Shown in pieces: positions 28,001 through 46,924 of a DNA stretch of 64,000 nucleotides. Under the pieces are notes generated by a model, which saw only the letters and a list, made by a program, of their open reading frames with translations, searched no databases and was not told where the DNA came from. Origin of the DNA: Thermodesulfobacteriota bacterium (lineage in GTDB: Bacteria; Desulfobacterota; Desulfarculia; JACQYL01). Position 1 is the first letter of the stretch. Every line of letters begins with the position of its first letter. The stretch covers positions 512,001-576,000 of the forward strand of contig CAXXLZ010000002.1 of NCBI GenBank assembly GCA_963675595.2, read 5' to 3'. The translations under genes were made by a program, and so were the position numbers.

Positions 28001-28951
28001 GCGGCCTATCTGACCAAACCGGTAAGCCACTCCGACCTTTTTGAAGTGTTGAGTCAACTCCTCAGCGGCAAAGACTTCACAGCCGAATCCTTGATCACAC
28101 GCCACACGGTGCGGGAACTCAGGCGTTTGAAGAAGGCGGTGGGGGCACGCATCCTCGTGGTGGAGGACAACGCCACCAACAGGGAAGTGGTCCTGGGCAT
28201 CCTCGAAAAACTGGGACTCTCGGTTGACGCCGCGGAAAACGGCCTGGAAGCTCTGGAACATGTCAAATCCGCGCCTTATGATCTCGTCCTGATGGACGTA
28301 CAAATGCCCCTTATGGACGGACTCACGGCCACGCGCAAAATTCGGGAATCGGATTTCGATCAAAAAGACCTGCCCATCATCGCCATGACCGCACACGCCT
28401 TTTCCGCCGATCGCGAAAAATGCCTGGAAGCGGGAATGACCGATTATATCTCCAAACCGGTTTCGCCGCGGGGGTTGGCGGAGGTTCTGAGCCGTTGGCT
28501 GCCGGGCGGCCCCGATGTCGAAGCGCCGGATCCGGGCCCGACGCCGAGCGACACGACCCGAACGCTTGATTCATCCCCCGACCCTGCGATTTTCGATCCG
28601 ACCACTTTCATGGAACGGGTGCTGGATGATGAAACCCTCGGAAGGCGGGTCATCGACGCGTTTCTGGACGATATGCCTCGACGGATGGAAGCTCTGAAAG
28701 AATCCATCGAGAAGAAAGACGCCGAGGAAACGGCAAGGCGAGCCCATACCATCAAAGGGGCCGCATCCAACGTTTGTGCTGAAACCGCGGTCTCCCCGGC
28801 CGCAAGGATTGAACAGGCCGCAGAGGCTGAAGACTGGCCGTCGGTGGAATCCCTTGTTGTTCGTCTGGAAGCCGCTCATAAAACCGTTAGGGAAGCCTTG
28901 GAAGCCTTTCTCAGGGAACTGGAAGACCAACCAAAGGGAAAAGATTCATGA
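25064..28951 (+). CDS. Hybrid sensor histidine kinase (3 PAS, HisKA, HATPase, 2 REC, Hpt)
   Basis: [42 protein letters not shown], two receivers, AHTIKGAA; start uncertain. Confidence 0.92.
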
Positions 28952-29559
28952 GAGTGCTGATCGCCGAAGATGATTCGACTTCCCGGGTCCTGCTCAGCGG
29001 GGCATTGGAGAAATGGGGATACGATCCCCTGGAAACCGCCGACGGCAACACGGCCTGGAGCATCTTGTGCCGGCCGGACGCTCCTTCCCTGGCTATCCTG
29101 GATTGGATCATGCCCAGGATGGACGGCATGGAGGTGTTACGCCGCGTCCGGGAGCTCGATACGGAGAACCCTCCTTATATCGTAATCCTGACCAGCAAGA
29201 AGGGGAAGAAAGATATTATCGCCGCGCTGGACGCCGGAGCCAACGATTACCTGATCAAACCCTTCGATCCTGATGAGCTTCGCGCCCGTGTCCAGGTGGG
29301 GCGCAGGATGATCGAGCTGCAAGAGGCCCTTACCGCCAAGATTACGGAACTGCGCCGAGCCCTCGATCAAATCAGAACCCTCCGAGGCATCGTGCCCATC
29401 TGTATGAGCTGCAAGAAGATTCGCGACGATCAGGGCTATTGGAAGCAGGTGGAAGCCTACGTGCGGGACCACACGGAGGCCGAGTTCAGCCACGGCCTCT
29501 GTCCGGAGTGCATGAAAAACATGTATCCCGATTTTGATCCGAACCGCTCCAAAGAATAG
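28948..29559 (+). CDS. Response regulator with C-terminal Cys/His-rich domain
   Basis: LIAEDD, ILDWIMP, KPF; C-terminal PICMSCKKIRDD...FSHGLCPEC; ATGA overlap with the kinase. Confidence 0.9.
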   Translation: MRVLIAEDDSTSRVLLSGALEKWGYDPLETADGNTAWSILCRPDAPSLAILDWIMPRMDGMEVLRRVRELDTENPPYIVILTSKKGKKDIIAALDAGANDYLIKPFDPDELRARVQVGRRMIELQEALTAKITELRRALDQIRTLRGIVPICMSCKKIRDDQGYWKQVEAYVRDHTEAEFSHGLCPECMKNMYPDFDPNRSKE

Positions 29560-29887
29560 CCCAAACCCAAGTCCGGAAGGCCCCTTCCGTTCCCCTTCCG
29601 CCTGGGAGAAGCGAAGCGCACCCCGAATCCACCGCAGGACGAACATCACCGTAACCGATCCAACCCTCTGATTCCGCATCGTTATTTCCCATTTGACATG
29701 CCCGTACATCCGGGAGATAAACGCGTTTTGATAAACCAAATCCGCCCAGAGGCATTTATGATCGACGTCTTCGGCTTTATCTGACGCCTGTTACTTGGCC
29801 GACCGGGTTTGTCGGTCGAAACTCACAAGCCGAAATCCCGCACAACCCGCCTTCGACCCTTCAGTACCAGGCAGGAACAACCCTAGT

Positions 29888-30019
29888 AGACCGTTGAAGG
29901 ACGCCGCTTGCGTCGCTGTGACGTACTTTTTCCAAGTACGCCTCAGTTTTCGGAATTTGTGGGCCTCGCATATCGTCGTTTTTCGATAATCCGCCGGCAT
30001 CCGATCTTTTCAACGGCCT
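29888..30019 (+). repeat. Family B MITE-like element, degenerate
   Basis: AGACCGTTGAA...TTCAACGGCCT ends; internal CGTACTT...AAGTACGCCTCA core. Confidence 0.65.
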
Positions 30020-30169
30020 GAGAGGCGTTCGGATTCCTCTCGCGAGGAGACGGGTACTCGAACGCGGCCCGCCGGGAACCGCTTCGGCGCAGACCGTCGG
30101 GAGCGACGCTGCCGTCCGGCAATGCGCCGGCGGTGCGCCCCGATCCATACACCAATTGAGGAGAACATC

Positions 30170-31447
30170 ATGAGTGAAGACTATCGTTCCATGTGGGCGG
30201 ACCTGGGTTTGGACCTCGCGGCCCACGACGCCTTGCTGGGCGTGTTGGGACAAGCCTACGGGGACCTCTATCTGTCGCAAAAAGACCGCCCGGAAGGAAT
30301 GGGCTACTTCGACTTCGTCATGAGTGAAGTCCACGGCCTCCGCATCAAGGAACTTCTGGATGAGAAGAAAGCGGGCCGCAAGATCATCGGCTCCTACTGC
30401 GTGTTCGTACCCGAAGAAATCGTGCTGGCGGCCAACGCCACCCTGGTGGGACTTTGTTCCGGCGCCGATTTCGCCATGGAGGAAGTGGAAAAGCTGCTCC
30501 CCCGCAACACCTGCGCCCTGATCAAGTCGTCCTTCGGTTTCAAACTCGGCAAGGTCTGTCCCTACTTGGAAAGCGCGGACATGATCGTGGGCGAGAACAC
30601 CTGCGACGGAAAAAAGAAAGCCTACGAATCCCTGGGCAAACTGGTGGATCATCTGTACGTCATGGACCTGCCCCAGGTAAAATCCGACCAGGGTCGCGCC
30701 CTGTTGAAGGCTGAATATCAACGCTTCAAAGCGGCCGCGGAAGCCCTCACCGGCTCCCCCATCACCACGGAATCCCTGAAGGAGGGGATTCGCACGGTGA
30801 ACGCCAAGCGGGCGGCCGTACATCGCCTTTCCACTCTGCGCAAGGCGGACCCGGCCCCCATTTCGGGTCTGGACGCCCTCCTGGTCAACCAGGTGTTCTT
30901 CTACGACAATCCGGCTCGATTCACCGAATCCGTGAACAAGATCTGCGATGAACTGGAAAAGCGCATCGCAGACAAAAAGGGCGTCTTCCCGGAAAAGACG
31001 CCCCGACTCCTGGTTTCGGGCTGCCCCCAAGCGGTGCCCAATTGGAAACTCCCCTATATCGTGGAAACCTCGGGCGCGGTCATCGTGGGTGAAGAATCCT
31101 GTGTGGGGGAACGCGGTACCCGCAACCTCACCGACGAATCAGGCGAAACCGTGGAAGACATGATGGAAGCCATTGTGGACCGTTACTACAAAGTGGATTG
31201 CGCCATCTTCACCCCCAATCCGGACCGCCTGGAACACATCCGGGAAATGTTCTCCGAATACAAGGCCGACGGAGTGATCCACTACGGCCTCCAGTTCTGC
31301 CAACCCTATCTCATGGAATCCATCCCGGTGGAAAACGCCCTGGAAGACGGCAACATCCCCACGCTGCGCCTGGAAACCGACTACAGCATGGAAGACGTGG
31401 GCCAACTCAAAACCCGAATCGAAGCCTTTATCGAGCAATTACGGTAG
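30170..31447 (+). CDS. Double-cubane cluster protein-like reductase (2-hydroxyacyl-CoA dehydratase fold), paralog 1
   Basis: GSYCVFVPEE, GLC, PRNTCALIKS, VCPY, GENTCDGKKK, EESCVGER, DCA, QFC, ETDYS..DVGQLKTRIEAF. Confidence 0.88.
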   Translation: MSEDYRSMWADLGLDLAAHDALLGVLGQAYGDLYLSQKDRPEGMGYFDFVMSEVHGLRIKELLDEKKAGRKIIGSYCVFVPEEIVLAANATLVGLCSGADFAMEEVEKLLPRNTCALIKSSFGFKLGKVCPYLESADMIVGENTCDGKKKAYESLGKLVDHLYVMDLPQVKSDQGRALLKAEYQRFKAAAEALTGSPITTESLKEGIRTVNAKRAAVHRLSTLRKADPAPISGLDALLVNQVFFYDNPARFTESVNKICDELEKRIADKKGVFPEKTPRLLVSGCPQAVPNWKLPYIVETSGAVIVGEESCVGERGTRNLTDESGETVEDMMEAIVDRYYKVDCAIFTPNPDRLEHIREMFSEYKADGVIHYGLQFCQPYLMESIPVENALEDGNIPTLRLETDYSMEDVGQLKTRIEAFIEQLR

Positions 31448-31459
31448 GGACTGCAGAGA

Positions 31460-31550
31460 CTCCGGGGTCCTCCGCCGAAGGCGGGCGACCCCGCTCAAAA
31501 AGTTTGGGGAGGGGCTTGGGGAACCCTTTTTCAAAAGGGTTCCCCAACAA
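31460..31550. repeat. Family A hairpin modules
   Basis: CTCCGCCGAAGGCGG and TTGGGGAACCCTTTTTCAAAAGGGTTCCCCAA. Confidence 0.65.
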
Positions 31551-31579
31551 ACGATAACGAAGCATCTCTTCAGGAGTGC

Positions 31580-32341
31580 ATGTTGACCACACGTTTTGCC
31601 GGAATCGACATCGGTTCGCGCACCATCGAACTGGTGGTGGTGGACGAAGCGGGAACAATCCTCGAAGGCCGCCGGGCGGACACGGGGTTCGACCCGGTGT
31701 CGGAGGCGGAAAACCTGGTCCGTGAGACGTCTTTCGACCGCATCATGGCCACCGGGTACGGCCGCAGTCTTTTCGAAATCTCTTTCGACGCGCCCACGGT
31801 CACGGAGATCAAGGCGCACGCCAGAGGCGCACGCGCCTACTTTCCCGAGGCGCGAACCGTGCTGGACATCGGGGGCCAGGACAGCAAGGCCATCGCCCTG
31901 TTTGACACGGGCAAGGTCAGGAAATTCGAAATGAACGACCGCTGCGCCGCCGGCACGGGAAAATTCCTGGAAATCATGGCCCGCACCCTGGGTTATGACA
32001 TCGAGGAATTCGGTCGGGAAGCCCTGAAGGCGGAACAGGAACTCAATATCTCGAGTATGTGCACGGTGTTCGCCGAATCCGAAGTGGTGTCCCTCATCGC
32101 CAAAGGCCGCAGCCGCCGCGAAATCGCCCTTGGACTGCACGCGAGTGTGCTCCGCCGGGTGGCCGCCATGATTCGAAGGGTTTCCTCGGGCGGAGACATC
32201 GTATTCACCGGAGGCGTGGCTCAAAACCCCTGCATGCGCGCCCTGCTGGCGGAAAAAATGGAATGCGAAGTGCTTCTGCCGCAAGAACCTCAGTTCGTCG
32301 GGGCTTTCGGCGCGGCTTTGCTCGCCATGGAAGCAGCATGA
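31580..32341 (+). CDS. ASKHA ATPase [4Fe-4S] activator (HgdC/BadFG/DCCP-R type)
   Basis: GIDIGSRT, ATGYGR, DIGGQDSK, MNDRCAAGTG, SSMCTVFAESE, FTGGVA. Confidence 0.93.
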   Translation: MLTTRFAGIDIGSRTIELVVVDEAGTILEGRRADTGFDPVSEAENLVRETSFDRIMATGYGRSLFEISFDAPTVTEIKAHARGARAYFPEARTVLDIGGQDSKAIALFDTGKVRKFEMNDRCAAGTGKFLEIMARTLGYDIEEFGREALKAEQELNISSMCTVFAESEVVSLIAKGRSRREIALGLHASVLRRVAAMIRRVSSGGDIVFTGGVAQNPCMRALLAEKMECEVLLPQEPQFVGAFGAALLAMEAA

Positions 32342-32465
32342 AAGACTGGTGAAAAACGCGATCTGCGGTGTTGCGCTTCCTCCCTCGTCACTGCGGCGTA
32401 CTTCTATGTACGCCTCACTCCTCGGGACTCGCGCGCCTTGCATCTCATCGTTTTTCACCAGTCTT
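32342..32465 (+). repeat. Family B MITE-like element, best-preserved copy (124 bp)
   Basis: Perfect 17-bp TIR AAGACTGGTGAAAAACG; internal GGCGTAC-TTCTAT-GTACGCC hairpin. Confidence 0.85.
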
Positions 32466-32524
32466 CCGCAATCGGACTATTTTAACGGACCGGCGAAAAG
32501 ATACGAGAAACAGTACGGTTTAAC

Positions 32525-32770
32525 GGAGGAAAACTTTCGAGGAAGTTTTCCGGACCTCCTTTCAAAGCTTCTTGAGCGGGCCTCACCGCCTGCGGCGGAG
32601 AGGCGAAGTGGAGACCGGGAATTGCCTCGCTTTTAAGCAATGAGCGGACAAACGACCTTTGCGCTTCCCAACGATTTCCCACCGGAGACGCTCCGCCGAA
32701 GGCGATGCGGCCATGCCTGAAGTTTTCCGGGGGGTGTGGGGGGCGCTTTTTCAAAAGCGTCCCCCACGAC
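32525..32770. repeat. Family A hairpin modules
   Basis: GAAAACTTTCGAGGAAGTTTTC, GGCCTCACCGCCTGCGGCGGAGAGGC, GGGGGCGCTTTTTCAAAAGCGTCCCCC. Confidence 0.65.
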
Positions 32771-32829
32771 TGCGGAAGCCGAACGAATAATAGTTTCCCA
32801 ATGCATTACTTGAAGCGGGAGAAGACTTC

Positions 32830-33981
32830 ATGAATATCACACCATTGATGAACGACGGCCTGGACGGCGAACCCGGAAAGCGGGTGTTGAAATACGTGGA
32901 GGGACGCAAGGCCCAGGGCGACCCCATTGTGGGGATCTACTGCGGATACGCACCCATCGAAGTGATACAGGCCATGGGCATCGTGCCGGCGGTGTTGTGC
33001 GCCTTTTCCAGGGTGCCCATTCCGTCGGCGGAAACCATGCTGCCGGCCAATCTGTGTCCTTTGATCAAGTCGAGCTACGGGTTCATCATCGAAGGCACCT
33101 GCCCCTTTTTCAGCCTGTCCGGCGCGGTCATCGCGGAAACCACCTGCGACGGCAAGAAGAAGATGTTCGAGCTCATCGCGGACATCAAACCCACTTTTGT
33201 CATGGACCTGCCCCAATTGCCGGACGAGGCCGAGGCCAAGCAGAACTGGAAAAACATGATCCTCAAGCTGTACGCGTTCCTGGAAGACACCTTCCAACGC
33301 TCGGCCACGGAGGATCAGATCGAGGCGTCCCTGCGGTCCGCCAACCGAAAGAACGAGCTCATGCGCAGGTTCTTCGACTATGCGGCGCTCAAGCCGCCGG
33401 TGCTTCATTGGAAGGAAATGTACGACCTGGGTTTCCTGGCCCTGCCGGCCACGGGCGACGAGATGGTCCCTCTGATCGAGACTCTGCTCGAAAGACTGGA
33501 AACCCGGGTGAAGGAAGGCATTTCCTTCGGAAAACCCGATGCGCCCCGCGTTCTGGTGACGGGTTGTCCGGTGGGAGGCGACGCCGCCAAGATTTTTAAC
33601 GTCATCGAAGCCGCCGGGGGCGTGGTGGTGGCTCCCGACGCCTGCACGGGCATGAAGGCTTTTATGGGCCGGTTTGAAGAAGGCACGGGGGACCCCGTGG
33701 GGGCCATCGCCGACCGCTACCTCAAGATTCCCTGCGCCTGCATGACCCCCAACCAGCGACGCCTGACCGAACTGTCGGCCCTGATCGAACGATTCCAACC
33801 CGACGCGGTGATCGACCTGATCCTGCAGGCCTGTCATTCCTACAATGTGGAATCCTATCGCGTGGGTCAACACGTGACCGAACAACACGGCCTGCCGTTC
33901 TTGAAGGTGGTGACGGACTATTCCGATTCGGACACGGGCCAGCTCAAGACCCGCATCGAGGCTCTTTTCGAAAGCATTTAA
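32830..33981 (+). CDS. Double-cubane cluster protein-like reductase, paralog 2
   Basis: GIYCGY, VLC, NLCPLIKSSYG, TCPF, ETTCDGKKK, DACTG, PCAC, QACH, TDYS..DTGQLKTRIEA. Confidence 0.85.
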   Translation: MNITPLMNDGLDGEPGKRVLKYVEGRKAQGDPIVGIYCGYAPIEVIQAMGIVPAVLCAFSRVPIPSAETMLPANLCPLIKSSYGFIIEGTCPFFSLSGAVIAETTCDGKKKMFELIADIKPTFVMDLPQLPDEAEAKQNWKNMILKLYAFLEDTFQRSATEDQIEASLRSANRKNELMRRFFDYAALKPPVLHWKEMYDLGFLALPATGDEMVPLIETLLERLETRVKEGISFGKPDAPRVLVTGCPVGGDAAKIFNVIEAAGGVVVAPDACTGMKAFMGRFEEGTGDPVGAIADRYLKIPCACMTPNQRRLTELSALIERFQPDAVIDLILQACHSYNVESYRVGQHVTEQHGLPFLKVVTDYSDSDTGQLKTRIEALFESI

Positions 33982-33996
33982 ATAGATGTCTCACAT

Positions 33997-34300
33997 GTAA
34001 CCGGGGAAGACTTTCGAGCAGGCCTCACCGCCTCCGGCGGAGAGGCTGCGGATGAATTCAGGCTTCTCACTCCTTCCCAACGTTCCTTACATCTGCTGAG
34101 TCGGCAAAGAAGCCCTCAAGTTCGGCTTCGTTCCGGGAGGGACGGGCCTCCGTTTCGCCCTTGCGAATCGCCTACGGAATTCGCAAAACGAGCCAGCATG
34201 TACCGTTCAACGTATTAAAATACTTAAAGTTTTTTGGAGGGAGCCCGAGGGAACCCTTTTTTCAAAAAGGGTTCCCTCGGATACTCCTCTGAATGCTCAC
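33997..34300 (-). repeat. Family A MITE-like element (inverted relative to 22763-23079)
   Basis: TGAATGCTCAC end at 34290-34300; shared internal GCGAATTCCGTAGGCGATTCGCA segment. Confidence 0.8.
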
Positions 34301-34714
34301 AAAAAATGGCGACTTTTGCCTATTTACGTCCCCCTCTTCCCTGAATACACTAAGAACAGCGTTGTCTTCTTTTTCGTCCCTCGACAGTCGGGGCCACCTT
34401 CATACGCAGGAATTCATGCGGAGTGGGAGGCAGGGATGTAAAAAACACTCACCATACACCGCCGGTTCCTCGCGATTCCGCCGCAGCCGTGGTTTCCGAC
34501 TTCCCGGATGTCCCGCTCTCCCGCCCTTTTCCCGGTGCTTCCGCTTCCGCTTCGAGCCGTCCCCCAAAACTGGTCAAGTCTCACCATGAGCGCCTGTACC
34601 AAGGCGGTGTCCCCCCGGTCCCGTTCTGTGAAAAGGCCCGATAGGGTGTGCGAACGGACGTCGAACCCGCGACGTCCCCGCCGACGGTAAAAACCTGGAT
34701 GGAGGAAAACGGAC

Positions 34715-37700
34715 ATGGCGGAAGAAAAGGGAGGCGGCGGGAGTTCGCTGCCTGTGTCGGCGTTGATTCTGGCCCTGGCCGCCTTGGGCATCCTGGTGGC
34801 GCCCAAGTCGCCTCTGAGAAGCGATCGGCCCGTGCTTTCGCGCCTGCACGAAGCGGCTCCGCAGGAGGACGTGCGGGCCCGCCTGTGGGAGGACCCCTTC
34901 GAGGCCGTGCTCAAGGACGCTCGGGAAAGACGCTCTCGCTCGGGCGCCCGGGCGGGCGCCCATGGCTCCGTGCCGCTAAAGGCCGAAATTCCCCCGCTTC
35001 TCAAAGAGCAACTCGCGGAGGAGGGCCCCACTATTCTGGGCGTGATGACCAACGGGGGTCCCTATGCGGAGGACGGCGAGTGGCGGCTGAGACATCGCTA
35101 CGCCGTGGTTTCGGCCCTGCTGCGTGCCGGTTTTCTCCCTTGGGACGAACGGCACATCGGGAGCTTCTATTACGACTACGGCTCTTCCCGGAGTCCCGGA
35201 AGCAAGGCGCCCCCCACCATGGAACCCCCGTGTCCCAGTGGGGAGCCCAACATGTGCTGTATCGTTCCCTACGAGGTTTTCTGGAAACAGCGAACCGTTC
35301 CCCAAAAGTGCAAGGAAGTGGTCCTGCTGGTTTGGATCAACGACCATGCGAGCCTGCTCGACGGCCGGCCCCTGGCGCGGGTCCTGGAGGTGATTCGCCT
35401 GGCCGATCCCATCGTTGGAACCCAAGCCTCGAACCCTGGACCTTCAGAGTCCCCTCCTCCGCGCCTCAAGATCATCGGGCCCGTGGGGTCCACTCCCCTG
35501 GCCGCGATCTGGCGGGAGCTCATGGCGGCGGAAGCCGAATTGGGCAACCGGAACGATTCCGGAGAGCAGGCGCGGGGCGTTGCATCGACTCCCACCCAAG
35601 AATCGGACGGCGGATCCGACGCCTACGCGATCCACCTCTCCCGAGGCGAGGTGCAATTCTTCTCCCCTACGGCCACGGCCGCCGAACACGACCTGAGGGA
35701 ATGGAGCGATCTCAAGAACGATCCGGACTCGGGCTCCTCCGCAGCCCCGAGTTTGCAGGAAGAGTTCGAGGAGTTCGGAATCCGATTTTACCGCACCATC
35801 CTTACGGACGAGGAATTGGCCGGAGCCTTGGTAGATGAGGTGGCCTTGAGGGCCCACACCGGCAAGAAAAAGATGCATGTGGTTCTGGTGGGAGAGAAGG
35901 ATACCATCTATGCCCGGTCCCTTGCCGATTCCTTCAAGAAAGCCTTTGAAGACCATTCCAACGGGCAACAGGCGTCGGACTCCAAGGATCCGGCTCCCGA
36001 ATTCCAGACAGTGTACTTTTCCTATCTGCGAGGGTTGGACGGCAGACTTCCCGGCGACCCCCAAGACGAAGGCGCGGAATCCGAGGGGAATCAGGAAGAG
36101 TCCAAGACCGATCGATCGAGGGAGGACCGTCCGGTGGGATTCGGCCGTTTCGATTATCTGGAACGCCTCGCCGATCAAATCGCCTTATACGAAAAGGACG
36201 CGAAGGAGAATCGAGACTCCGCGGGAGTGTTGGCCATCGGAATTCTGGGCAACGACGTATACGATAAGCTGCTGGTCATCCAGGCTCTCAGACAGCGTTT
36301 TCCCTTGAAGCTGCTCTTCACCACGGATGTGGACACACGCCTTCTGTATCGGGACTATCGGAAATGGACCCGAAACACCCTGGCGGTTTCCAGCTTCGGG
36401 TTGTCCCTGCATCCCCGCATACAAGGAAGCGTGCCCCCCTTTCGTGATTCCTACCAGACTTCCCTGTTCTTCACCACCCTGGCGGCCCTGGGCACCATCG
36501 GCATTGAAAACGGCCGTCTGATCTACGCAGAGCAAACCGACGTAGACGAACCGCCGGAATCGGCTGTGCGTTTCAAGACCGACCGATCCTGCAATGCGGT
36601 TTCCGCCGCGTATGCGGGAAATGCCTTGTCCGCCCTGCAACCGCAGGTATATGAAATCGGAAGAAGCAGCCTGGTGTATCTCAGCTCAAAGGCCGGTGCC
36701 GGATCACCCGATTCCGGAAAACAAGGCGTTTCCATCTACGGCGAGACCGGTCGCGGCAACCGGGTGTTGGTGGATTTCATCGTGGAATACCTGTTGGTTC
36801 TGCTTCCTCTGGCGTTCGTTCTTTTCTGCGCACTCAGCTATCAGGTTCAGAACGTGCTCTTTCAACTGGGAAACTCCAAAAAAATCTACCTCCCGGCCGT
36901 TGCTCTGGGCGCGGTTCTCCTCGTATCCGCCGCATGGCTTACCAATCACGTCTCCGGTATTCCCCGGGAGGAGCCTATTTCCTTCACCGAAGGGATCAGC
37001 GCCTGGACCACCATCTGGATTCACTGGATCGCCTTCGCCCTGTCCCTGGTCTACTTGGGAATTCATTACCGCAGAATGAACGTAAATCGGGAGGCCATCG
37101 AAACGGAAGAAGGCATGGAGGCGTCTTTCCCGGGAAAGCGCGCCGATTCCGTGCGGAAAAGATCATTCGACTGGAAGATTTTCACGGGGTACTTGTGGCA
37201 GCCGACATCGAACGAAAAATCAGTGGAACCCGAACCAACGGAACCATCGACATCGGGCAAGCCCTCTCCTTCTCCTCCCATTGAAGAGCCCACCGCCGGA
37301 CGCGAGGCAATCTGGTCCGCCTATGTGCGTGCGTCCGAATCATGGCTCAGCCTCATCCGGGCCGTGCTGTTGACCGCCGTGTATTACCTGTTCATGGGGA
37401 TTCTCTTCAGGGAGTTCCATGCCGACAACCTCCTCATTCGAGGAGACCTGACCTATACCGTCTATGAATGGACCGGGCATGTCACTCGATTCCTCTTCTT
37501 CGTGCTCCTGTTCTTCGCTTTCGATCAGGCGCAGAACTGCGCCCGCATGGTGCAGCTATATACCGATCTGGTTCGGGAGCGTTCCGTTCAAGCCCTGCGC
37601 TCCGAAACCGCACCCGCCGATAACCTGGACAGAGACGCCCTGGACCTTGCACATCTCATCGCCAAACGCACGGAATGCGTTTCCCGACTGGTGTTGGCTC

Positions 37701-38074
37701 CCTTTTTCATCTGGTTTTTGCTCATTCTTTCCAGGCTCCGCTTCTTCGAAGGATGGGACACGGGACTCCTCCAGACCTTGGCCCGCATCATCGCGGGTTT
37801 GATCTGCGTCATGGCCGCCGTTACCCTGCGCCGGTCCGCCAAGCGGTTCCAGCAGACCCTGTCGGACGCCCTGGACATCCACCGGAGAAAGGCGGCGCGT
37901 CACGGCAATGAGGAACAGGCGCAACGCATCGCCTCGATTCGGGAGGAAGTAATGCAACTCCGTCGAGGCGCTTTTTCATCGCTCCTTCATCTTCCCATTG
38001 TCCAGGCCGTGCTCTGGCCCTTCACCGGCATCGGCAGCCTGTATCTCATCGACTACCTGGGGGAGTTTTTTTAA
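34715..38074 (+). CDS. Large membrane protein: putative type I periplasmic-binding (Venus flytrap) domain plus ~8 C-terminal TM helices
   Basis: 1119-aa ORF with GGAGG RBS; N-terminal hydrophobic segment; IIGPVGS, FSPTATA, FYRTILTD, VVLVGEKDTIYARSL motifs; hydrophobic helices from ~36770. Confidence 0.7.
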   Translation: MAEEKGGGGSSLPVSALILALAALGILVAPKSPLRSDRPVLSRLHEAAPQEDVRARLWEDPFEAVLKDARERRSRSGARAGAHGSVPLKAEIPPLLKEQLAEEGPTILGVMTNGGPYAEDGEWRLRHRYAVVSALLRAGFLPWDERHIGSFYYDYGSSRSPGSKAPPTMEPPCPSGEPNMCCIVPYEVFWKQRTVPQKCKEVVLLVWINDHASLLDGRPLARVLEVIRLADPIVGTQASNPGPSESPPPRLKIIGPVGSTPLAAIWRELMAAEAELGNRNDSGEQARGVASTPTQESDGGSDAYAIHLSRGEVQFFSPTATAAEHDLREWSDLKNDPDSGSSAAPSLQEEFEEFGIRFYRTILTDEELAGALVDEVALRAHTGKKKMHVVLVGEKDTIYARSLADSFKKAFEDHSNGQQASDSKDPAPEFQTVYFSYLRGLDGRLPGDPQDEGAESEGNQEESKTDRSREDRPVGFGRFDYLERLADQIALYEKDAKENRDSAGVLAIGILGNDVYDKLLVIQALRQRFPLKLLFTTDVDTRLLYRDYRKWTRNTLAVSSFGLSLHPRIQGSVPPFRDSYQTSLFFTTLAALGTIGIENGRLIYAEQTDVDEPPESAVRFKTDRSCNAVSAAYAGNALSALQPQVYEIGRSSLVYLSSKAGAGSPDSGKQGVSIYGETGRGNRVLVDFIVEYLLVLLPLAFVLFCALSYQVQNVLFQLGNSKKIYLPAVALGAVLLVSAAWLTNHVSGIPREEPISFTEGISAWTTIWIHWIAFALSLVYLGIHYRRMNVNREAIETEEGMEASFPGKRADSVRKRSFDWKIFTGYLWQPTSNEKSVEPEPTEPSTSGKPSPSPPIEEPTAGREAIWSAYVRASESWLSLIRAVLLTAVYYLFMGILFREFHADNLLIRGDLTYTVYEWTGHVTRFLFFVLLFFAFDQAQNCARMVQLYTDLVRERSVQALRSETAPADNLDRDALDLAHLIAKRTECVSRLVLAPFFIWFLLILSRLRFFEGWDTGLLQTLARIIAGLICVMAAVTLRRSAKRFQQTLSDALDIHRRKAARHGNEEQAQRIASIREEVMQLRRGAFSSLLHLPIVQAVLWPFTGIGSLYLIDYLGEFF

Positions 38075-38223
38075 TGCGGAATTCCGCCATCAGACTCCGG
38101 TTGTTTTTTCATACGGGCTCACGGCATCATTAGGATGCTCTTCGCCGGGTTTTTGGTTTCCATGTTTTTGGTAACCTTTCCGGCCGGGGGGGAACTTTTA
38201 AAAAAGTTCACCCCCCGGACCCC

Positions 38224-39608
38224 CATAAGCGCTAACTTAAGCCTTTTGTTTTGGTGAGGTTTATGGTACCGTTGCCGCCAAAGGAGGTGGCAATGGAGCG
38301 TCTCGTTTTTTCCGAGGAAATGGAAGACTGGGAAGTTCTCCAGGGTTTTCTTCCCGATGGCTGGCAATCCAAAGCAAGGGAACTTGGTGCCGTTGTCAGA
38401 TACCGTAAGTTCGTGGACGCCGAAGGTCTGTTGCGAACGCTTCTGATCCATCTGGCGGAAGGTTGCTCACTTCGGCTGACGGCGGCCAAAGCCAGGTTCG
38501 GCAACATTACGTCGATTTCCGACGTAGCTCTCCTAAAACGACTGAATAAATGCGGAGAGTGGTTTCGGTGGATGGCCTTAGGGGTCATGGAGAAATGGTT
38601 TCGAAAGCTGCCCGCCGTTGTTTTTGGAGAGAATTCACGCATCAGGTTGATCGATGCCTCCACCATTCAAGAACCTGGAAGTACCGGAACGACTTGGAGG
38701 GTCCATTATTCCATACAATTGCCTTCGCTGCGCTGCGACGAAGTCTATGTAACAGACCCCAAGATCGGAGAATCCTTCACCAATTTCAAAGTCCATGGCG
38801 GTGAACTTCTTGTAGCGGATAGAGCCTATTGCACACCAAGAGGAATTCACCATGTCATAGACAACGGCGGCGACGTCCTGGTTCGAATGAAACACCGTGT
38901 CGCCATGGTGGACAAGCAAGGGGAACGATTCCAATTACTCCCTCATCTAAGGACGTTACGTGTAAATAAGCTTGGCGACTGGGATGCATTCGTTCCATTT
39001 GAACAACGCTTGGTTGCAGGTAGAATCTGTGCCATCAAGAAGAGCAAAGACGCCACTGAAAAAGCTCGTAAAGCGATAGAAAAAGAGGCGAGGAAAAAAG
39101 GTCGCCAAGTTACTCCGGACACCCTCGAAGCGGCGGCCTACATATTTGTTTTCACAACATTGGGCCGTGAAATCTCGCCCTCTCAGGTCCTCGAGATGTA
39201 CCGAGGTCGATGGCAAATTGAACTCGCTTTCAAGCGTCTAAAGTCCATTCTCGGTTTAGGCCATCTTAGAAAGACCGACATCGAAGGAGCCAAGGCCTGG
39301 ATCCATGGGAAACTACTGGTGGCTTTCTTAGTGGAGGCCATGATCGCCGCAGGCGAATCTTTTTTTCCCTGGGGATACCCACTCCAAAAAGAACCACCGT
39401 AGAAATCGATGCTTCTGGAGAGAGACCATGTTTATGTTACACCTGCTGAAACAAGCCGTGAACCCTAAACTCGGCTTGGCCGAATGCATTGCCGGCTGGG
39501 ATAACATATCTTTTTATTTGCGAGAACCGCCAAGGAAACGAGCACTTCAGCGGCTGATTCCTCAGACGGAAAGAAGCATAGCAAACAATGCTTAAGTTAG
39601 CGCTTATG
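38224..39608 (+). mobile_element. IS4-family insertion sequence, copy 2
   Basis: Same 19-bp TIRs, same length and identical ORF translations as copy 1; 11-bp direct repeat CCCCGGACCCC at 38213-38223 and 39609-39619. Confidence 0.95.
38293..39402 (+). CDS. IS4-family DDE transposase (probable +1 extension to 39595)
   Basis: Identical translation to 17972-19081. Confidence 0.93.
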   Translation: MERLVFSEEMEDWEVLQGFLPDGWQSKARELGAVVRYRKFVDAEGLLRTLLIHLAEGCSLRLTAAKARFGNITSISDVALLKRLNKCGEWFRWMALGVMEKWFRKLPAVVFGENSRIRLIDASTIQEPGSTGTTWRVHYSIQLPSLRCDEVYVTDPKIGESFTNFKVHGGELLVADRAYCTPRGIHHVIDNGGDVLVRMKHRVAMVDKQGERFQLLPHLRTLRVNKLGDWDAFVPFEQRLVAGRICAIKKSKDATEKARKAIEKEARKKGRQVTPDTLEAAAYIFVFTTLGREISPSQVLEMYRGRWQIELAFKRLKSILGLGHLRKTDIEGAKAWIHGKLLVAFLVEAMIAAGESFFPWGYPLQKEPP

Positions 39609-39910
39609 CCCCGGACCCCCCTTCAAAAATCCCCAAGCAGGCCTCACCGCCTCCGGCGGAGAGCCTGAGGGAGAAATAGGGTTGCTCACTAATTTCCAAC
39701 GTTCCTTACATCTCATAAATCGGTAAAGGAATTCCCTTCTCAATAAATGCAGTTTTTAGCCCGAGCCGGATGTCACCCCCCCCTCTCCGCCGAAGGCGGT
39801 GAGGCACTCTTGAAATGCTTTGAAGGGAGCCCGAGGGAAACTTTCTCGAAAGTTTCCCTCGGTGAATGGATGCTTCTGCCCTTCACCAACCTCTCATGGA
39901 GATTCCGACC

Positions 39911-41293
39911 ATGCTTCTTCAACGGATTTTCACACTCGTGCTTCTTTCTGTTTTCATTTGGATTTCGCCCGGGTCTTCCCAGGCCGGGGAGTTGAATGTG
40001 GGCATCATCGGAGATCAGACCGGCAGTCTTGATTTGGACGCTTCGTACGAGGCTTTGAGCAAAGGCGTGGAGATCCTCAAGGCGCGGGAAGTGCAACTGG
40101 TGCTGCACGTGGGGGACCTCATAGAAAGCACGCGGTCGGACGAGGAATGCAAGAGGGATTACCAAAAGGCCGCGGGCATTTTGGACGGTCTCGGGGTGCC
40201 CTGGTATCTCACTCCCGGGGATCATGACGTGAATCCGGTTGCCTGGGAGGCGGGATCGGACGACCGGTCCAAGGAGACGTTGTTCCGCGGGCTCTACGCG
40301 GAAAAGGTGCCGGAGTTCAAGGACCGGATGTATTACAGCTTCGATTTCGGGGGAGTTCATTTCATCGCTCTGTACACGCACGAGACGTTGCGGGTGGACC
40401 CCAGGTGGGGCAACGTGTTTTTGGCGAAAATATCCGACGCCCAATTGGACTGGTTGGAACAGGACCTGGAACGCAACAAGGCGTGCGCCGGCGTGGTGGT
40501 GTTCCTGCATCAACCCCTTTGGTATCACTGGGCCGGGTGGGCGCGGGTCCATCGGCTCCTGGCCTGTTATCCCGTGCGTGCGGTCATTGCGGGGCATTTT
40601 CATTACGACCAGGACGAAGGCACCCTGGACGGGATCCGGTACGTGATCGTGGGAGCCACGGGAGGCGGGGTGAAGGACGCGAGTCGAGACGCGGGCAACG
40701 CCTGGCACGTAACCACCCTACGGCTTTCCGGGGAGTCGGTGAAGTTCACGCTTTCGCCCCTGGAGGGCGAAGAGCCGTTGGAACTCACCCCCAGAACGCA
40801 AATGGACCGGGTTCAGGCCGTGGAATCCATGATGGACGGTCTGTACGGTTTCGGTTCTCGCAATCCGGTGTTCCTGAAAGACCGGCGGCTCTGTTCGAGC
40901 TGCGATACGGACGCACCGGCCGTATTGACGTTGACGCGCGTGGGCAACCCCATCGACCTGCCCTTGACCGTGACCATACAGCCGTTGTCCAGCCACACGG
41001 CCCTGCGAGAGGCCGCGTTTGTGGTCGAAGCCTGCGCGTCGTCTCCAAGCGACTCCTCGTGCGTGCTGCCTCCGGGTGAACGCGTGGTCCTGTCCAACAC
41101 GTCCTTCGTGAGACTGACCTACGACGGTTCCGACCCCGAACCCCTGTGGTCCGCCCGTCCCGTGCCCAAGGACGGGGCAACCATCGAGCCGGGAACCCCG
41201 CTCCAACTTCAAATTCGCGCGGAATTCCAGGGCGAGGATAGGACTTACTGGGTGGATCGCGTTGTGTCCGTTGCGGTCAAGGGGTGTCCTTGA
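39911..41293 (+). CDS. Secreted calcineurin-like metallophosphoesterase with C-terminal extension
   Basis: Signal peptide; IIGD, HVGDL, TPGDHD, FLHQP, AGHFH motifs. Confidence 0.85.
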   Translation: MLLQRIFTLVLLSVFIWISPGSSQAGELNVGIIGDQTGSLDLDASYEALSKGVEILKAREVQLVLHVGDLIESTRSDEECKRDYQKAAGILDGLGVPWYLTPGDHDVNPVAWEAGSDDRSKETLFRGLYAEKVPEFKDRMYYSFDFGGVHFIALYTHETLRVDPRWGNVFLAKISDAQLDWLEQDLERNKACAGVVVFLHQPLWYHWAGWARVHRLLACYPVRAVIAGHFHYDQDEGTLDGIRYVIVGATGGGVKDASRDAGNAWHVTTLRLSGESVKFTLSPLEGEEPLELTPRTQMDRVQAVESMMDGLYGFGSRNPVFLKDRRLCSSCDTDAPAVLTLTRVGNPIDLPLTVTIQPLSSHTALREAAFVVEACASSPSDSSCVLPPGERVVLSNTSFVRLTYDGSDPEPLWSARPVPKDGATIEPGTPLQLQIRAEFQGEDRTYWVDRVVSVAVKGCP

Positions 41294-42153
41294 GGGGGTG
41301 GCACACCGGGGAGGGTGGAGGGAAGAAGTGCACGGGGGGGGCGGCGGGTTTCGGGTCCCCCTGCCGTTGTATTGGCCTAACTTTTATCTATCGTCACGTC
41401 CTACCCATTTTCCGGCAACAAAAAAGTGCGCTGTGCGGCCAAAACTGACGGGAATTACCAATTTACAGGCTATTGCAGCTGGGGTAGACTAATATAATCT
41501 AAGAGTCAGGTTCTCCTTCGTCCTCAAGGATTCCACCAAATGGAAAGTGAAGTCCTCGGGAGTGCTGCCTCGCTATGAATCCCGCAGTGGTTTATGGTGA
41601 CCGCCCTTGCCGATGACAAGGGTGACCATTACTGCCGACGCCGCCGTCATCGTTACGAAATTCTTTCTGGCCTTGTAAGCGGAGCGCCGGAACGATACAG
41701 ATAACGTAAATGCACAGACAGTGCAACACGCAATAATAAATTATATATTTTATATTGAACTATATGGTAGGGATGCCATTATCCCTATCTATTATAACAG
41801 TTTTCATCATCTATATCGGATCAGTATTGCTGATAGCAATAGATAATGATACATAGCATAACACCAAACTATTTCAAAATCTAGGATGTAAAACATAAAG
41901 GAGGAGAATATAATGAAAAAAAATCTTTCAGCCATAATAATACTTATAACCATCGCCTTGACCACAGGATGCGCCAAGACAATATGGGTTTACAAAAACA
42001 AAGATGATAATAAAAGTTTGACTTATAAGACAGAAAAACTCAAGGGAATCCCATTTTACAGAAAATGCGGCATATGCCGACAAACTATCTCTTTTCTTGA
42101 TCCTTGGTATGACATAAAGCTGGTTATTTACTATAAAAACCATGTTACGTCCG

Positions 42154-42193
42154 ACGCCGACAACGAAGCCAACGCCGACAACGAAGCCAACGC
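42154..42193 (+). repeat. 18-bp tandem duplication encoding (ADNEAN)2
   Basis: ACGCCGACAACGAAGCCA x2. Confidence 0.85.
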
Positions 42194-42675
42194 TATAACT
42201 CTTGTGAAGCTTAGAGATATAACCGTTAGAGCGCAAAAAAACAAGGCAACAGATGACATACTGAAGGAAATGAAATTTATTTTAATGGAAAATAGAAAAT
42301 GTGATTCAGACTGTTTCAACAATATTATGAACCATATTAATAGACTACGCGAAGTCAAAAATGAAGAACCAATTATGATATCTAACACTATAAAAATAGA
42401 TACGTACGTAGACTATTCACATCCCCTATACATTAATTCTCCGTTACCGTGGTTTGGCAGCTCATCTTTAGTTGCAACACTAGCTTCTGATGGCACACTG
42501 ACTGAGGTTACTAGTTCACCTGTGTCTCCTAAAGCGGATGAGATTGCAAATATGCTTCCAATAAAAGAGTATTTTATGAAAAGCCTTTCTTTGCCTTCAG
42601 GGGGGGAGACTTCCGGAGCAGAACCCGGAGCCCAACGCGATGGCAAGGCCGAATATGTTGATCGTATATTGGACT

Positions 42676-44225
42676 CTAGAGTTTAGAGCCATGCGGGGCA
42701 GCCAAGTTTGTATAGAAGAGCATAGTTCTCCAAGACGGGTTGAATACCGTTGACGTAAGGCTTTGAGATGATTGACTGAACACGGATATCAGGCAGCGCG
42801 CCCCAAGTCTTCCGGAGAATCGGTGAATTCCGGTTGGAATTTTTTGGATTTCCGGTTCCACATGGCTCGCACGTTTAAGTTGCCGAAAAGACGACCGATG
42901 GCTGCGGCCATCCAGCCGGCGGTGGCGGGCCTGTTCTTTCTCCAAGGGATTGGAAACATCGTATAGGCCGCGTTGGGACCCAGGCAGAGCGCCAAGAGCC
43001 GTGGCAAGCCGTAGGCCAGGCACAAGATCATGCTCCATCGAGCCAATGTCTGCCGTGTCTGCTGCCAAGCATTTTTCAGTCCGAACAGGTGCTTGATCTC
43101 GTTGAACATGGGCTCGGTCCACCATCGTCGTGCATAGCGTGTAATCACTTCCGCGCCGTCCATGTCGGGATCGGTACTGATCAGAAGATGCCAATCGGAC
43201 CAAGAGGGGTTGTCGGACATAAACCGGCACCACACGATCTTGCACAACCGGCCGTCCAGGAAGCGGACTTTGGCTTTGGTTTGGTAGAACTGGAAAACTC
43301 GTTCCGAGCCGTAGGCAAAGAGGGTTTTCTCCACCGGACGACAGAATCGTCCGATGTTTTCCAACGTGAGTTTTTCCCCATACTTTCTGGGTCTGCCCCG
43401 TTTCTTCCGAGGCGGATTGTCCGGAGGCAAAAACAGGGCGGTATCTTTGCGGACTTGGCCGATGACCGTCACACCATCGCGAATCAGGGGAACCACCAGG
43501 GAGCTTTTCATATACCAGGCATCGAGCAGCAGAATAATGAGAAAGCGATCCGGCAGCCAAGTCATGAGAACGGACATCAAGAGCCGCGCCGCGTCCAGTT
43601 TGGTGGTGTTCCCTTTTTTGCGGATGAGCCGAAACAAGAGGGGAAACGCGGCTACCCGGCCCTTGTGGCGGCAGATGACAGCCAGAGAAACCCGAAGCTG
43701 TCCCCACAGGAATTTGGGGCGGTTGGGCCGGTGCGCGTGATCGTAATGCCAACCGGCGCAGGGAGCTTTCTTGGACGATCTGGGCAAAGGGAAGTCGTCT
43801 ATGGCGAACTCGATGGATCGGTTTGGAATCCGTTTCAGGATCAGGCGCATCCATTGCCGGGCTAGCGCAAGCCATTGGAATCGGCCCTTTTCGATGGCCT
43901 TGTAATAGGCGGTCCAGGACAACTGGGGCCGAACGGCCAGAAGCGCGGAAGAAATATGGCCGCCGCGGCAGACCATACATCCCATCAGGAGTTCCAGAAG
44001 AGTCGGAGCTATTCTGCACGGAACGGCCTGAAATAGAAAGGAAATCCACTGCGATAGGAGCATAAGTGCTTGAGCCGTCGAATCCATTGGTTGACCCCCA
44101 AGGAAAGGTTTCTTTCCTTAAAGGGCCGCCAAAGGCGGCCGCGCATCCGCGCGGCAATGTCAAGTACTTTGTTGTCTTTATTCGCATTTTTCCTATACCA
44201 AGGGTCGCCAGACTCTAAACTCTAG
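42676..44225 (-). mobile_element. IS701-family insertion sequence (1550 bp)
   Basis: 13-bp perfect TIR CTAGAGTTTAGAG; 7-bp TSD TTGGACT at 42669-42675 and 44226-44232. Confidence 0.9.
42789..44087 (-). CDS. IS701-family DDE transposase
   Basis: AIDD, LLDAWY, YARRWWTEPMFNEIKH motifs. Confidence 0.88.
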   Translation of the reverse strand: MDSTAQALMLLSQWISFLFQAVPCRIAPTLLELLMGCMVCRGGHISSALLAVRPQLSWTAYYKAIEKGRFQWLALARQWMRLILKRIPNRSIEFAIDDFPLPRSSKKAPCAGWHYDHAHRPNRPKFLWGQLRVSLAVICRHKGRVAAFPLLFRLIRKKGNTTKLDAARLLMSVLMTWLPDRFLIILLLDAWYMKSSLVVPLIRDGVTVIGQVRKDTALFLPPDNPPRKKRGRPRKYGEKLTLENIGRFCRPVEKTLFAYGSERVFQFYQTKAKVRFLDGRLCKIVWCRFMSDNPSWSDWHLLISTDPDMDGAEVITRYARRWWTEPMFNEIKHLFGLKNAWQQTRQTLARWSMILCLAYGLPRLLALCLGPNAAYTMFPIPWRKNRPATAGWMAAAIGRLFGNLNVRAMWNRKSKKFQPEFTDSPEDLGRAA

Positions 44226-44695
<470 letters not shown>

Positions 44696-45313: not shown

Positions 45314-46924
45314 ATGTTTGCACGCGTCAAAAAGGTCAAAAGCGGCGGATCCGAGCATGAATATCTTCAGATCGTGGAGAACTATCGCCAGGATAAGAAG
45401 GTAAAACAGAAAGTTATATGTACACTGGGTCGTCTCGACAAGCTCCGTGAATCGGGTGCCTTGGACGGGGTTCTTACCAGTCTCGCCAAGTTCTCCACCC
45501 GGAATCAAGTCATCAATCTTTATAAGGAAGGTAGTGTCAAGGCAGACTGGGCCAAGTCCTGGGGAACCGTTCTGGTGATCGAGAAACTCTGGAAGACCTT
45601 GGGGCTCGATGTGGTACTCCGATCTCTCGCTTCTCGCTCCGATTATCGCTTCGATCTAGAGCGCGCGGTCTTTGCCTGCGTCTGCCAACGCTTGGTCCGT
45701 CCGGGATCCGATCTCGCCGCGAGCCGTTGGATTCAGAACGTCCACGGTGAAGGCTTCGACGACCTGGAGCTTCAGCACCTTTATCGATCCATGGACTTCC
45801 TGGCCGAGTATCAGCCCGAAATCGAAAAGGAACTTTTCCGTCGGGGCCGCGACCTCTTCGATTACGGGGTGGATCTCGTTTTCTTCGACACCACCTCGGT
45901 CTACTTCGAGGGCCGGGGGCCGGCCGAGTTGGCTCGATACGGGTTCTCCAAGGACCATCGTCCCGATCGGAAACAGGTGTTGGTGGGCGTCGTCATGTCC
46001 CGAAAGGGATATCCCCTTTCCTGTCAATTTTGGGAGGGCAACACGGCGGACGTTACCACCATCAAGCGCATCATCGCCCTGGTCAAGCGTCGGTTCTCCC
46101 TGAACAACGTGGTCCTGGTCTCCGACCGCGGTATGGTCGGCGTCGACAATCTGGTGGAACTGGAGCGTGCCGGTATCGACTACATCGTGGGCATCCCCAT
46201 GCGCCGTTACCAGGATGTCCGAGGCCAAGTGGTGGACACTCCGGGCTACTACCAAGCGCTCACTCCCACCTTGTGGTTCAAGGAGATTCATGTGAACGGA
46301 TGCCGTTACGTCCTCTGCTACAACCAAGACCAAGCAGCCAAAGACGAGGCCACCCGATCGGCCCTTGTGGAAAAGTTGAAAACCACCCTGAAAAAACAGG
46401 GGCCCCAGTCTCTGGTGGGAAACAAGGGCTTCAGGAAATTCATCAAACTCGACCGGGAAACCGTGCGCATCGATCCCGCCAAGGTCAAGGACGACGCCCG
46501 CTTCGACGGCAAGTATGTTCTCCTCACCAGTACCGACATTCCCGCCGATGAAGTGGCCGTTACCTACAAACGCTTGTGGCAGGTGGAAAGAGCCTTCCGG
46601 GACCTCAAATCGGCCCTGGAAGTCAGGCCCGTGTTCCACCAACGGTGTCAACGCGTTCAAGGTCACATCTTCTGCAATTTCCTGGCCCTATACCTGAAGA
46701 TCGCGCTGCAGAAACAGCTCAAAACCAAGGAAATCGACATCCCCTGGGACCAAGTTCTCCTGGACCTCGAAGCCTTCAAAGCCATCCATCTACAGGTCAC
46801 GGAGAAGTCCTACCTCCTCAGAACGGAATTCCAGGGCCGCGCCTACCACATCTTCCAAGCCGTCGGCCTCAAACCGCCGCCCACTTTGCAGACTCTCCAG
46901 GAGCACCAAAACGTAGTGCCATAA
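45314..46924 (+). CDS. IS1634-family transposase A
   Basis: MFARVKK...YLQIVENYR, FFDTTSVYFEG, GFSKDHRPD, VSDRGM, YKRLWQVERAFRDLK, PVFH. Confidence 0.92.
   Translation: MFARVKKVKSGGSEHEYLQIVENYRQDKKVKQKVICTLGRLDKLRESGALDGVLTSLAKFSTRNQVINLYKEGSVKADWAKSWGTVLVIEKLWKTLGLDVVLRSLASRSDYRFDLERAVFACVCQRLVRPGSDLAASRWIQNVHGEGFDDLELQHLYRSMDFLAEYQPEIEKELFRRGRDLFDYGVDLVFFDTTSVYFEGRGPAELARYGFSKDHRPDRKQVLVGVVMSRKGYPLSCQFWEGNTADVTTIKRIIALVKRRFSLNNVVLVSDRGMVGVDNLVELERAGIDYIVGIPMRRYQDVRGQVVDTPGYYQALTPTLWFKEIHVNGCRYVLCYNQDQAAKDEATRSALVEKLKTTLKKQGPQSLVGNKGFRKFIKLDRETVRIDPAKVKDDARFDGKYVLLTSTDIPADEVAVTYKRLWQVERAFRDLKSALEVRPVFHQRCQRVQGHIFCNFLALYLKIALQKQLKTKEIDIPWDQVLLDLEAFKAIHLQVTEKSYLLRTEFQGRAYHIFQAVGLKPPPTLQTLQEHQNVVP

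Follow-up and report, generated by a model that had tools for sequence, protein, structure and literature searches.

What kind of membrane protein is encoded by the unnamed gene at positions 34715-38074 (forward strand) of contig stretch CAXXLZ010000002.1, 512,001 to 576,000, from a Thermodesulfobacteriota bacterium (64,000 nucleotides [nt]; hereafter the window)? An initial annotation, made from the letters alone, had proposed an orphan ligand-sensing membrane receptor or a gated transporter or channel. Our analysis supports this proposal: the soluble part was modeled as a Venus-flytrap domain and predicted to be periplasmic, and the membrane part looks, in its models, like an insect-receptor-type seven-transmembrane ion channel (7TMIC) with two added helices, not like a G-protein-coupled receptor (GPCR). 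The reading that we favor, at a probability of roughly 45%, is a self-contained, single-polypeptide, flytrap-gated channel of the cytoplasmic membrane.

The gene and its reading frame

The gene is a single open reading frame (ORF) with an ATG start and no internal stop, and its 1119-amino-acid (aa) product carries the flytrap followed by the membrane helices, as annotated.

34701-34706, forward strand: Shine-Dalgarno sequence GGAGGA, 8 nt 5' of the ATG (direct sequence reading)
34715-38074, forward strand: whole gene, 1119 codons plus stop; homologs align across residues 1-1119

Its own genome carries one copy. Another 79 proteins matched at E ≤ 1e-3, many over 97-100% of the protein length, and relatives are encoded in 475 of 510 candidate stretches drawn from 185,579 species genomes. 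It is an intact, conserved gene under selection. Searches of Pfam, NCBIfam, PADLOC and PDB sequences matched no family or chain to the whole protein, and neither the protein nor the two domain profiles gave a significant match when searched against PDB sequences. Where relatives carry names, these are "hypothetical protein" or "Uncharacterized protein." The label "orphan" thus stands, as no named family or curated model was matched, and so does the reported absence of an enzymatic output domain: none was recognized in Pfam and NCBIfam scans, including a SLATT check of 72 members. Seven long members (1315-1606 aa) showed no Pfam domain, and no additional module was identified in them. A scan of 33900-38400 found no sigma-70-like promoter site, and terminator-like matches were no more frequent there than the shuffled expectation. 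Sequencing runs containing the gene comprised six DNA runs from two studies and no RNA run.

A Venus-flytrap fold in the soluble domain

35012-36700, forward strand: Venus-flytrap/periplasmic-binding-protein (PBP) type I domain, residues ~100-662
35465, forward strand: motif LKIIGPVGS, residues 251-259
35651, forward strand: motif VQFFSPTATA, residues 313-322
35783, forward strand: motif RFYRTILTDEELAGALVDEV, residues 357-376
35876, forward strand: motif HVVLVGEKDTIYARSLADSF, residues 388-407

The whole protein was modeled with AlphaFold2 (AF2) from 70 family sequences (mean predicted local distance difference test [pLDDT] 80.3; predicted template modeling score [pTM] 0.84). A Foldseek comparison of this model with the PDB, a check that the initial annotation had suggested for the soluble domain, yielded 236 matches at E ≤ 1e-3, led by ligand-binding domains of metabotropic glutamate receptors (mGluR; E 1.3e-7). 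The predicted soluble domain consists of two alpha/beta lobes and a hinge, superposable on LivJ/LivK-type structures; as modeled, it is a Venus flytrap of PBP type I fold. Its closest structures were solute-binding proteins of ABC transporters for amino acids, aromatic acids, amides and urea, and neighbors binding Leu/Ile/Val, aromatic acids, amides or urea scored at indistinguishable Z.

At the sequence level, none of the curated PBP models (Peripla_BP_6 PF13458, ANF_receptor PF01094 and relatives) matched the protein at E ≤ 1, and a six-frame search of the whole genome with PF13458 matched 17 places, none within the gene. When 61 flytraps of the family were compared by hhalign with 12 Peripla_BP_6 domains from this genome, the probability was 14.8% (E 0.0018, 95 columns). 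This same faint match paired GPxxS, YSxxATA, RTIxTD and EWDTxYGR with their PBP counterparts, that is, in the register expected from the PBP type I motif series originally recognized. All four motifs quoted at that time are present at their reported positions and conserved across the family, in the forms GPxxS, YSxxATA, RxIxTDxxLA and IxLIxEWDTxYGR. Invariant flytrap residues include E394, D396, D442, D480, Y481, D514, D517, D540 and R577. The low-complexity loops described between the motifs reappeared in the AF2 model: the flytrap (~560 residues) holds ~200 residues of low-confidence, low-complexity loop insertions, with pLDDT below 70 around residues 150-180, 280-300, 445-475 and 600-625.

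Helices and topology

Kyte-Doolittle hydropathy (19-residue window) revealed an N-terminal hydrophobic segment at residues ~12-30 (peak 2.4) and a further seven segments at 686-712, 725-745, 762-783, 878-899, 990-1010, 1018-1038 and 1094-1112. An eighth post-flytrap helix (911-962) was seen in the AF2 models only, which brings the total to nine and agrees with the approximately eight helices first counted after the soluble domain. A separate AF2 model of residues 672-1119, built from 72 C-terminal domains from genome loci (pLDDT 79.4, pTM 0.80), agreed with the whole-protein model on the helices as assigned by DSSP.

34748-34804, forward strand: transmembrane helix 1 (TM1), N-terminal membrane anchor, residues ~12-30 (hydropathy; helix 14-27 in the model)
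34805-35011, forward strand: conserved juxtamembrane linker, residues 31-99 (family alignment)
36755-36868, forward strand: TM2, residues 681-718 (hydropathy and models; mean conservation 0.27)
36887-38071, forward strand: seven-helix core of predicted 7TMIC architecture, residues 725-1119 (hydropathy and models)
Residues 725-745, 761-799 and 876-901, forward strand: core TM1, core TM2 and core TM3 (AF2 models)
Residues 911-962, 970-1005 and 1018-1062, forward strand: core TM4, TM5 and TM6 (AF2 models)
Residues 1066-1080 and 1094-1118, forward strand: TM7a (short, cytoplasmic) and TM7b (membrane) (AF2 models)
36968-37012, forward strand: outer loop 1 and start of core TM2, GEPFxxxEGISxWPT, residues 752-766 (alignment)
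37112-37291, forward strand: long disordered cytoplasmic loop rich in K/R/E/P/S, residues 800-859 (pLDDT 46-56; conservation 0.11)
37418-37444, forward strand: outer loop 2, GxPxxPxRG, residues 902-910 (alignment)
37445-37900, forward strand: three long helices (52, 36 and 45 residues) reaching into the cytoplasm (DSSP, both models)
37733-37762, forward strand: outer loop 3, RxxYFDxWDxP, residues 1007-1016 (alignment)
37910-38068, forward strand: split last helix, comprising TM7a, the junction GAFxPFxQHP (1081-1094) and TM7b (model, alignment)

The linker contains the motif ARLWEDPF (residues 54-61) and near-invariant R38, R56, W58, D60 and P61. TM7b carries a conserved P1102 and a Gly-rich stretch.

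Orientation was derived from loop charges counted over 76 aligned family sequences and read by the positive-inside rule. The loop following the first post-flytrap helix was positive (K+R 2.3, D+E 0.7) and the subsequent one negative (K+R 0.5, D+E 2.8). Three long positive-side loops carried 11.5, 8.4 and 9.2 K+R, compared to 0.5-1.6 in the opposite short loops and 0.4 in the C-terminal tail; in the window protein, the full TM4-TM5 loop, counted from the N-terminal anchor (residues 784-877), has 13. The TM1 flanks were uninformative (2.4 versus 2.5). These charges place the flytrap, between TM1 and TM2, in the periplasm and the C terminus outside. The flytrap is therefore predicted to lie outside the cytoplasm, as a ligand-sensing receptor demands in the initial annotation, and TM2 would be an extra helix that crosses the membrane between the periplasmic flytrap and the start of the seven-helix core on the cytoplasmic side.

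Resemblance of the core to insect receptors

When the membrane-domain model was aligned to all 48,161 PDB cluster representatives, the natural long matches were insect chemoreceptors, i.e., taste and smell receptor channels. The main text of Himmel, Moi and Benton (bioRxiv 10.1101/2023.08.30.555482) gives five defining features of 7TMICs: seven helices, an intracellular N terminus with an extracellular C terminus, inner loops longer than outer ones, long TM4-6 serving as an anchor domain and a split TM7 (7a/7b). Judged from the models and loop charges, the core of the window protein shows all five and also passes on Z score. Its seven helices lie within 725-1118, and its predicted orientation is N-in/C-out. 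The outer loops have median lengths of 18, 19 and 12 residues, the inner ones of 70, 51 and 56. Helices 911-962, 970-1005 and 1018-1062 are the counterparts of the anchor helices TM4-TM6 (pLDDT 85-97 in the domain model), and the last helix is split into 1066-1080 and 1094-1118 by a conserved 13-residue junction.

According to the same main text, bacteria and archaea have thousands of 7TMICs to which no function is assigned, reported from a prokaryotic screen that retained only proteins with exactly seven predicted helices (10.1101/2023.08.30.555482). The whole protein, with nine, fails this operational filter, so that a nine-helix flytrap fusion would have been excluded from the published screen; the words "periplasmic" and "fusion" are absent from that main text, supplements apart.

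Several observations call for caution in assigning the core to this fold. There is no sequence link to 7TMICs: the one 7tm_7 match among 72 members (E 0.044) was not to the window protein, and the membrane-domain profile gave a single chance match to PDB sequences (E 0.66). Designed helix bundles scored equally high in the fold search, and core TM1 fell outside the fold alignments. Moreover, TM4 and TM5 are long here, unlike in most prokaryotic 7TMICs, which the preprint's main text describes with shorter TM4 and TM5 (10.1101/2023.08.30.555482), and ion conduction by the present protein is itself a prediction. The scores of the designed bundles would suit an explanation in which the likeness to insect receptors reflects generic helix packing, the membrane part being a novel polytopic domain with its own fold to which the flytrap is anchored and whose function could not be deduced from structure. 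We regard this explanation as unlikely and put the chance that the core has the 7TMIC fold at roughly two in three; homology of the core to 7TMICs we infer.

Look-alikes of the membrane domain in the ESM Atlas were unnamed clusters only (scores 0.75-0.80). An oligomer prediction with four copies of residues 905-1119, a partial domain run without controls, scored 0.00 and has no bearing on a tetramer.

Family distribution and genomic neighborhood

A membrane-domain profile run against 1.84 billion cluster representatives (clusters at 50% identity) matched 3766 at E ≤ 1e-3 and 2452 at E ≤ 1e-30. Among the best 150 matches, 116 were at least 900 aa long, the shorter proteins began inside the domain, like contig-end fragments, and the domain ended ~12 residues or less from the C terminus, bar one row with two stretches. 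From these lengths and C-terminal positions, the fusion of flytrap and membrane domain is constant among the closest members. A word-based search for shorter proteins with stand-alone or otherwise fused domains gave one match, P0227 (332 aa, 52% identity). Together with P0002 (760 aa), it makes up the nearest relative (51-52% identity), jointly full length on a 283,976-bp contig; the pair probably reflects a gene copy that is split or frameshifted, or else a misassembly.

Taxa and neighbors were surveyed at the best 80 of the genome loci. Nitrospira/Nitrospirota contributed 33 of these, Nitrosomonas/Nitrosospira/Nitrosovibrio 11, and Nitrococcus and Scalindua one each; the rest were 12 from Desulfobacterota or "delta proteobacteria" and 22 others. 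Cultured nitrifiers that carry a family locus include Nitrospira moscoviensis, Nitrosospira briensis and Nitrosovibrio tenuis. Of the genomes sampled, 44 of 81 in the Nitrospira moscoviensis family (Nitrospiraceae) and 31 of 61 in the Nitrosospira briensis family (Nitrosomonadaceae) have the domain, often in 2-3 copies; among 40 relatives of the genome that contains the window, none has it.

The neighborhood survey of homologs, likewise suggested in the initial annotation, revealed no conserved partner gene over the 80 loci; the commonest neighbor cluster occurred at 14 of them. These counts bear on the idea of a solute transporter with a tethered binding protein, in which the flytrap would pass its ligand to a translocating membrane domain. 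The idea fits the solute-binding proteins closest to the flytrap, and many bacterial hits of the 7TMIC screen are annotated as ABC transporters, annotations that the preprint's main text calls errant (10.1101/2023.08.30.555482). However, ATPase or permease genes were neither adjacent nor conserved in the 80 loci, no transporter family was matched by sequence, and no long-alignment transporter chain occurred among the 50 fold matches listed. A transporter is therefore improbable.

At several Nitrospira loci (L019 [13013-13876], L024, L035, L049, L056 and L072), an ORF of ~280 aa lies 10-120 nt downstream on the same strand. With its weak TPR matches, it represents lineage-specific synteny and is not family-wide. 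An apparent paralogue directly downstream in ~8 Nitrospira loci was an artifact of single-linkage clustering, the 287-aa ORF being dissimilar, with weak TPR matches.

Conservation of the membrane domain and proposed mechanism

Conservation within the membrane domain peaked in outer loop 3 (0.67, residues 1006-1017; R1007 invariant). Outer loop 2 had a mean of 0.61 (R909 and G910 invariant) and outer loop 1 a value of 0.49 (G760, S762 and W764 invariant); the 7a/7b junction, TM7b and TM5 scored 0.59, 0.57 and 0.53. The least conserved parts were the disordered inner loop (0.11), TM2 (0.27) and core TM1 (0.29). Judged by this pattern, the conserved outer loops facing the flytrap are a candidate coupling interface, and the conserved last helix may form the pore.

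In bacteria, many receptors with a fused flytrap transduce signals instead of acting as channels, examples being BvgS-type kinases and chemoreceptors. By analogy, the protein might be a non-conducting transmembrane sensor, whose bundle would rearrange and signal through an unlinked cytoplasmic partner or an oligomeric change without ion flow; in the models, the three long helices and the 60-residue disordered loop rich in K/R/E could offer a cytoplasmic docking surface. But neither a recognizable output domain nor, in the 80 loci, a conserved neighbor was found, and the putative docking loop is the least conserved segment, whereas conservation is among the highest in the last membrane helix and its junction, a pattern more in keeping with a pore than with a docking site. 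Such a sensor is an unlikely, if serious, alternative.

In the flytrap-gated channel that we favor, the TM1 anchor and TM2 would hold the periplasmic flytrap above the seven-helix core. A small solute would close the flytrap, closure would pass via the three short conserved periplasmic core loops, possibly also via the ARLWEDPF linker, and a pore lined by TM7b would open. The subunits would be joined through the long cytoplasmic helices, much as in the tetramers of insect receptors, and the oligomer would convert ligand binding into ion flux. A four-fold assembly with TM7b around a central pore is reported in the preprint for 83 of 85 modeled 7TMIC tetramers (10.1101/2023.08.30.555482). The intact conserved gene, the flytrap fold, the fixed fusion, the loop-charge topology, the 7TMIC fold resemblance and the lack of a conserved partner gene were computed; we infer oligomerization, channel function and coupling through the loops. 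A wider proposal, that the family forms an ancient and widespread class of bacterial ionotropic chemoreceptors in which a periplasmic Venus flytrap gates an insect odorant/gustatory-type pore, is tentative, with the odds leaning against it.

Local context in the window

The genes upstream encode a hybrid histidine kinase, a response regulator and a 2-hydroxyacyl-CoA-dehydratase-type set. The reported lack of an adjacent ABC permease or kinase is right for the immediate neighbors; the hybrid kinase and response regulator lie 5-9 kb upstream, with three dehydratase/activator genes between. The region 25064-33981 encodes the kinase (3 PAS, HisKA, HATPase, 2 receiver and Hpt domains) and the regulator, then two HGD-D subunits and a BcrAD/BadFG-type activator ATPase, i.e., a 2-hydroxyacyl-CoA dehydratase or benzoyl-CoA-reductase-like set.

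Downstream, two transposases, the first of IS4 type, flank a metallophosphoesterase and two unknown ORFs. The IS4-type DDE transposase ORF (38251-39402) lies within an insertion sequence (38224-39608) that begins 150 nt past the stop codon and is bounded by terminal inverted repeats of 22 nt (95% complementary); the second DDE transposase ORF lies at 45314-46924. Between the transposases, 39866-44187 holds a 475-aa calcineurin-like metallophosphoesterase and ORFs of 257 aa (forward strand) and 503 aa (reverse strand) without Pfam match, possibly a cargo island. GC content falls to 0.50-0.51 at 38-40 kb and 42-44 kb. Since insertion sequences adjoin the gene and none of the 40 relatives carries the domain, the gene is accessory here, and it was probably acquired.

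An intergenic repeat of ~250 bp lies just upstream of the gene (34007-34258). A second copy (39619-39844, 81-82% identity), with a 45-nt inverted repeat, precedes the metallophosphoesterase gene. With 46 matches across all three contigs, often as ~125-nt halves, the element is a dispersed repeat resembling miniature inverted-repeat transposable elements or repetitive extragenic palindromes. A tandem array of the 9-nt unit GGCGCTACA (44307-44533; ~25 copies, one 8-nt slip) occupies the spacer between the unknown ORF 42676-44187 (reverse strand) and the second transposase.

The position beside insertion sequences, together with the sole Pfam match of the protein (SLATT_1, PF18181; residues 1001-1080, E 0.018), would suit a SLATT-like membrane-disrupting effector of a conflict system. 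However, the match scored 15.5 bits against a cut-off of 26.3 bits and, being shared by just 1 of 72 members, is due to chance. There was no PADLOC match and no nucleotide-signaling gene nearby, and the family is chromosomal, widespread and present in half of two nitrifier families. A SLATT pore-forming effector is thus effectively refuted.

Implications

No description of a flytrap fused to a 7TMIC-like core was found in the literature searched; both modules are known individually. If the flytrap-gated channel proves true, the prokaryotic 7TMICs reported in 2023, so far with no known function, would come to include one whose stimulus is open to biochemical identification, since ligands can be screened against a soluble flytrap, and whether prokaryotic 7TMICs are ligand-gated channels would become directly testable. 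On the wider proposal of a bacterial ionotropic chemoreceptor class, no earlier 7TMIC would have had a ligand-binding ectodomain of its own, and no earlier prokaryotic one so obvious an experimental handle. The prevalence of the family in nitrifiers, about half of the sampled Nitrospiraceae and Nitrosomonadaceae, would then point to ionotropic sensing of a nitrifier-relevant small solute. The family is large (3766 clusters), with neither a Pfam family nor a name, and common in ammonia and nitrite oxidizers, which matter to the environment and to wastewater and about whose chemical sensing little is known.

Comparison with known systems

PBP type I proteins of the LivJ/LivK/AmiC/UrtA group are recognized by Peripla_BP_6, whereas the present flytrap is recognized by no Pfam or NCBIfam model. 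It also differs from them, and from mGluR/ANF ligand domains, by the ~200 residues of disordered insertions. It is tethered covalently to membrane helices on both sides and has its own set of invariant residues.

The 7TMICs compared were Gr43a (8jm9/8zdz), BmGr9 (8vc1/8vc2), Gr64a and odorant receptors/Orco (6c70, 8z9z, 8v00, 8v3d). Relative to these insect receptors, the protein has two extra helices and the ~560-residue periplasmic flytrap ahead of the core. Their ligand binds within the helical bundle, whereas here a separate flytrap is present.

In class C GPCRs (mGluR, CaSR, GABA-B and taste T1R), as in the protein, a single chain carries an extracellular flytrap at its N-terminal end and a helical membrane domain after it. 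Full-length mGlu structures were the first Foldseek matches of the whole model, via the flytrap, and whole-chain alignments had a root mean square deviation of ~32 Å. In contrast to the seven helices in N-out/C-in orientation of class C GPCRs, eight follow the flytrap here, which puts the C terminus outside; core orientation is opposite, and there is no cysteine-rich linker. GPCR chains were not among the 50 matches listed in either membrane-domain fold search, and weak profile matches to GPCR fusion constructs (best E 0.008) appear compositional. The GPCR likeness appears to be architectural only, as had been maintained from the outset.

In ionotropic glutamate receptors (iGluRs) and bacterial GluR0, clamshell closure of a PBP-fold domain opens an attached tetrameric pore. 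None of their chains was among the fold matches listed. The ligand-binding domains of iGluRs belong to type II, and a potassium-channel-like pore module interrupts them, whereas in the window protein a type I domain precedes an unrelated seven-helix core. The proposed logic would nevertheless be the same, a binding-protein fold gating an attached pore. If so, the protein would represent a third independent joining of a binding-protein fold and a membrane signaling module, beside class C GPCRs and iGluRs, and would bear on how chemoreceptors were assembled in evolution.

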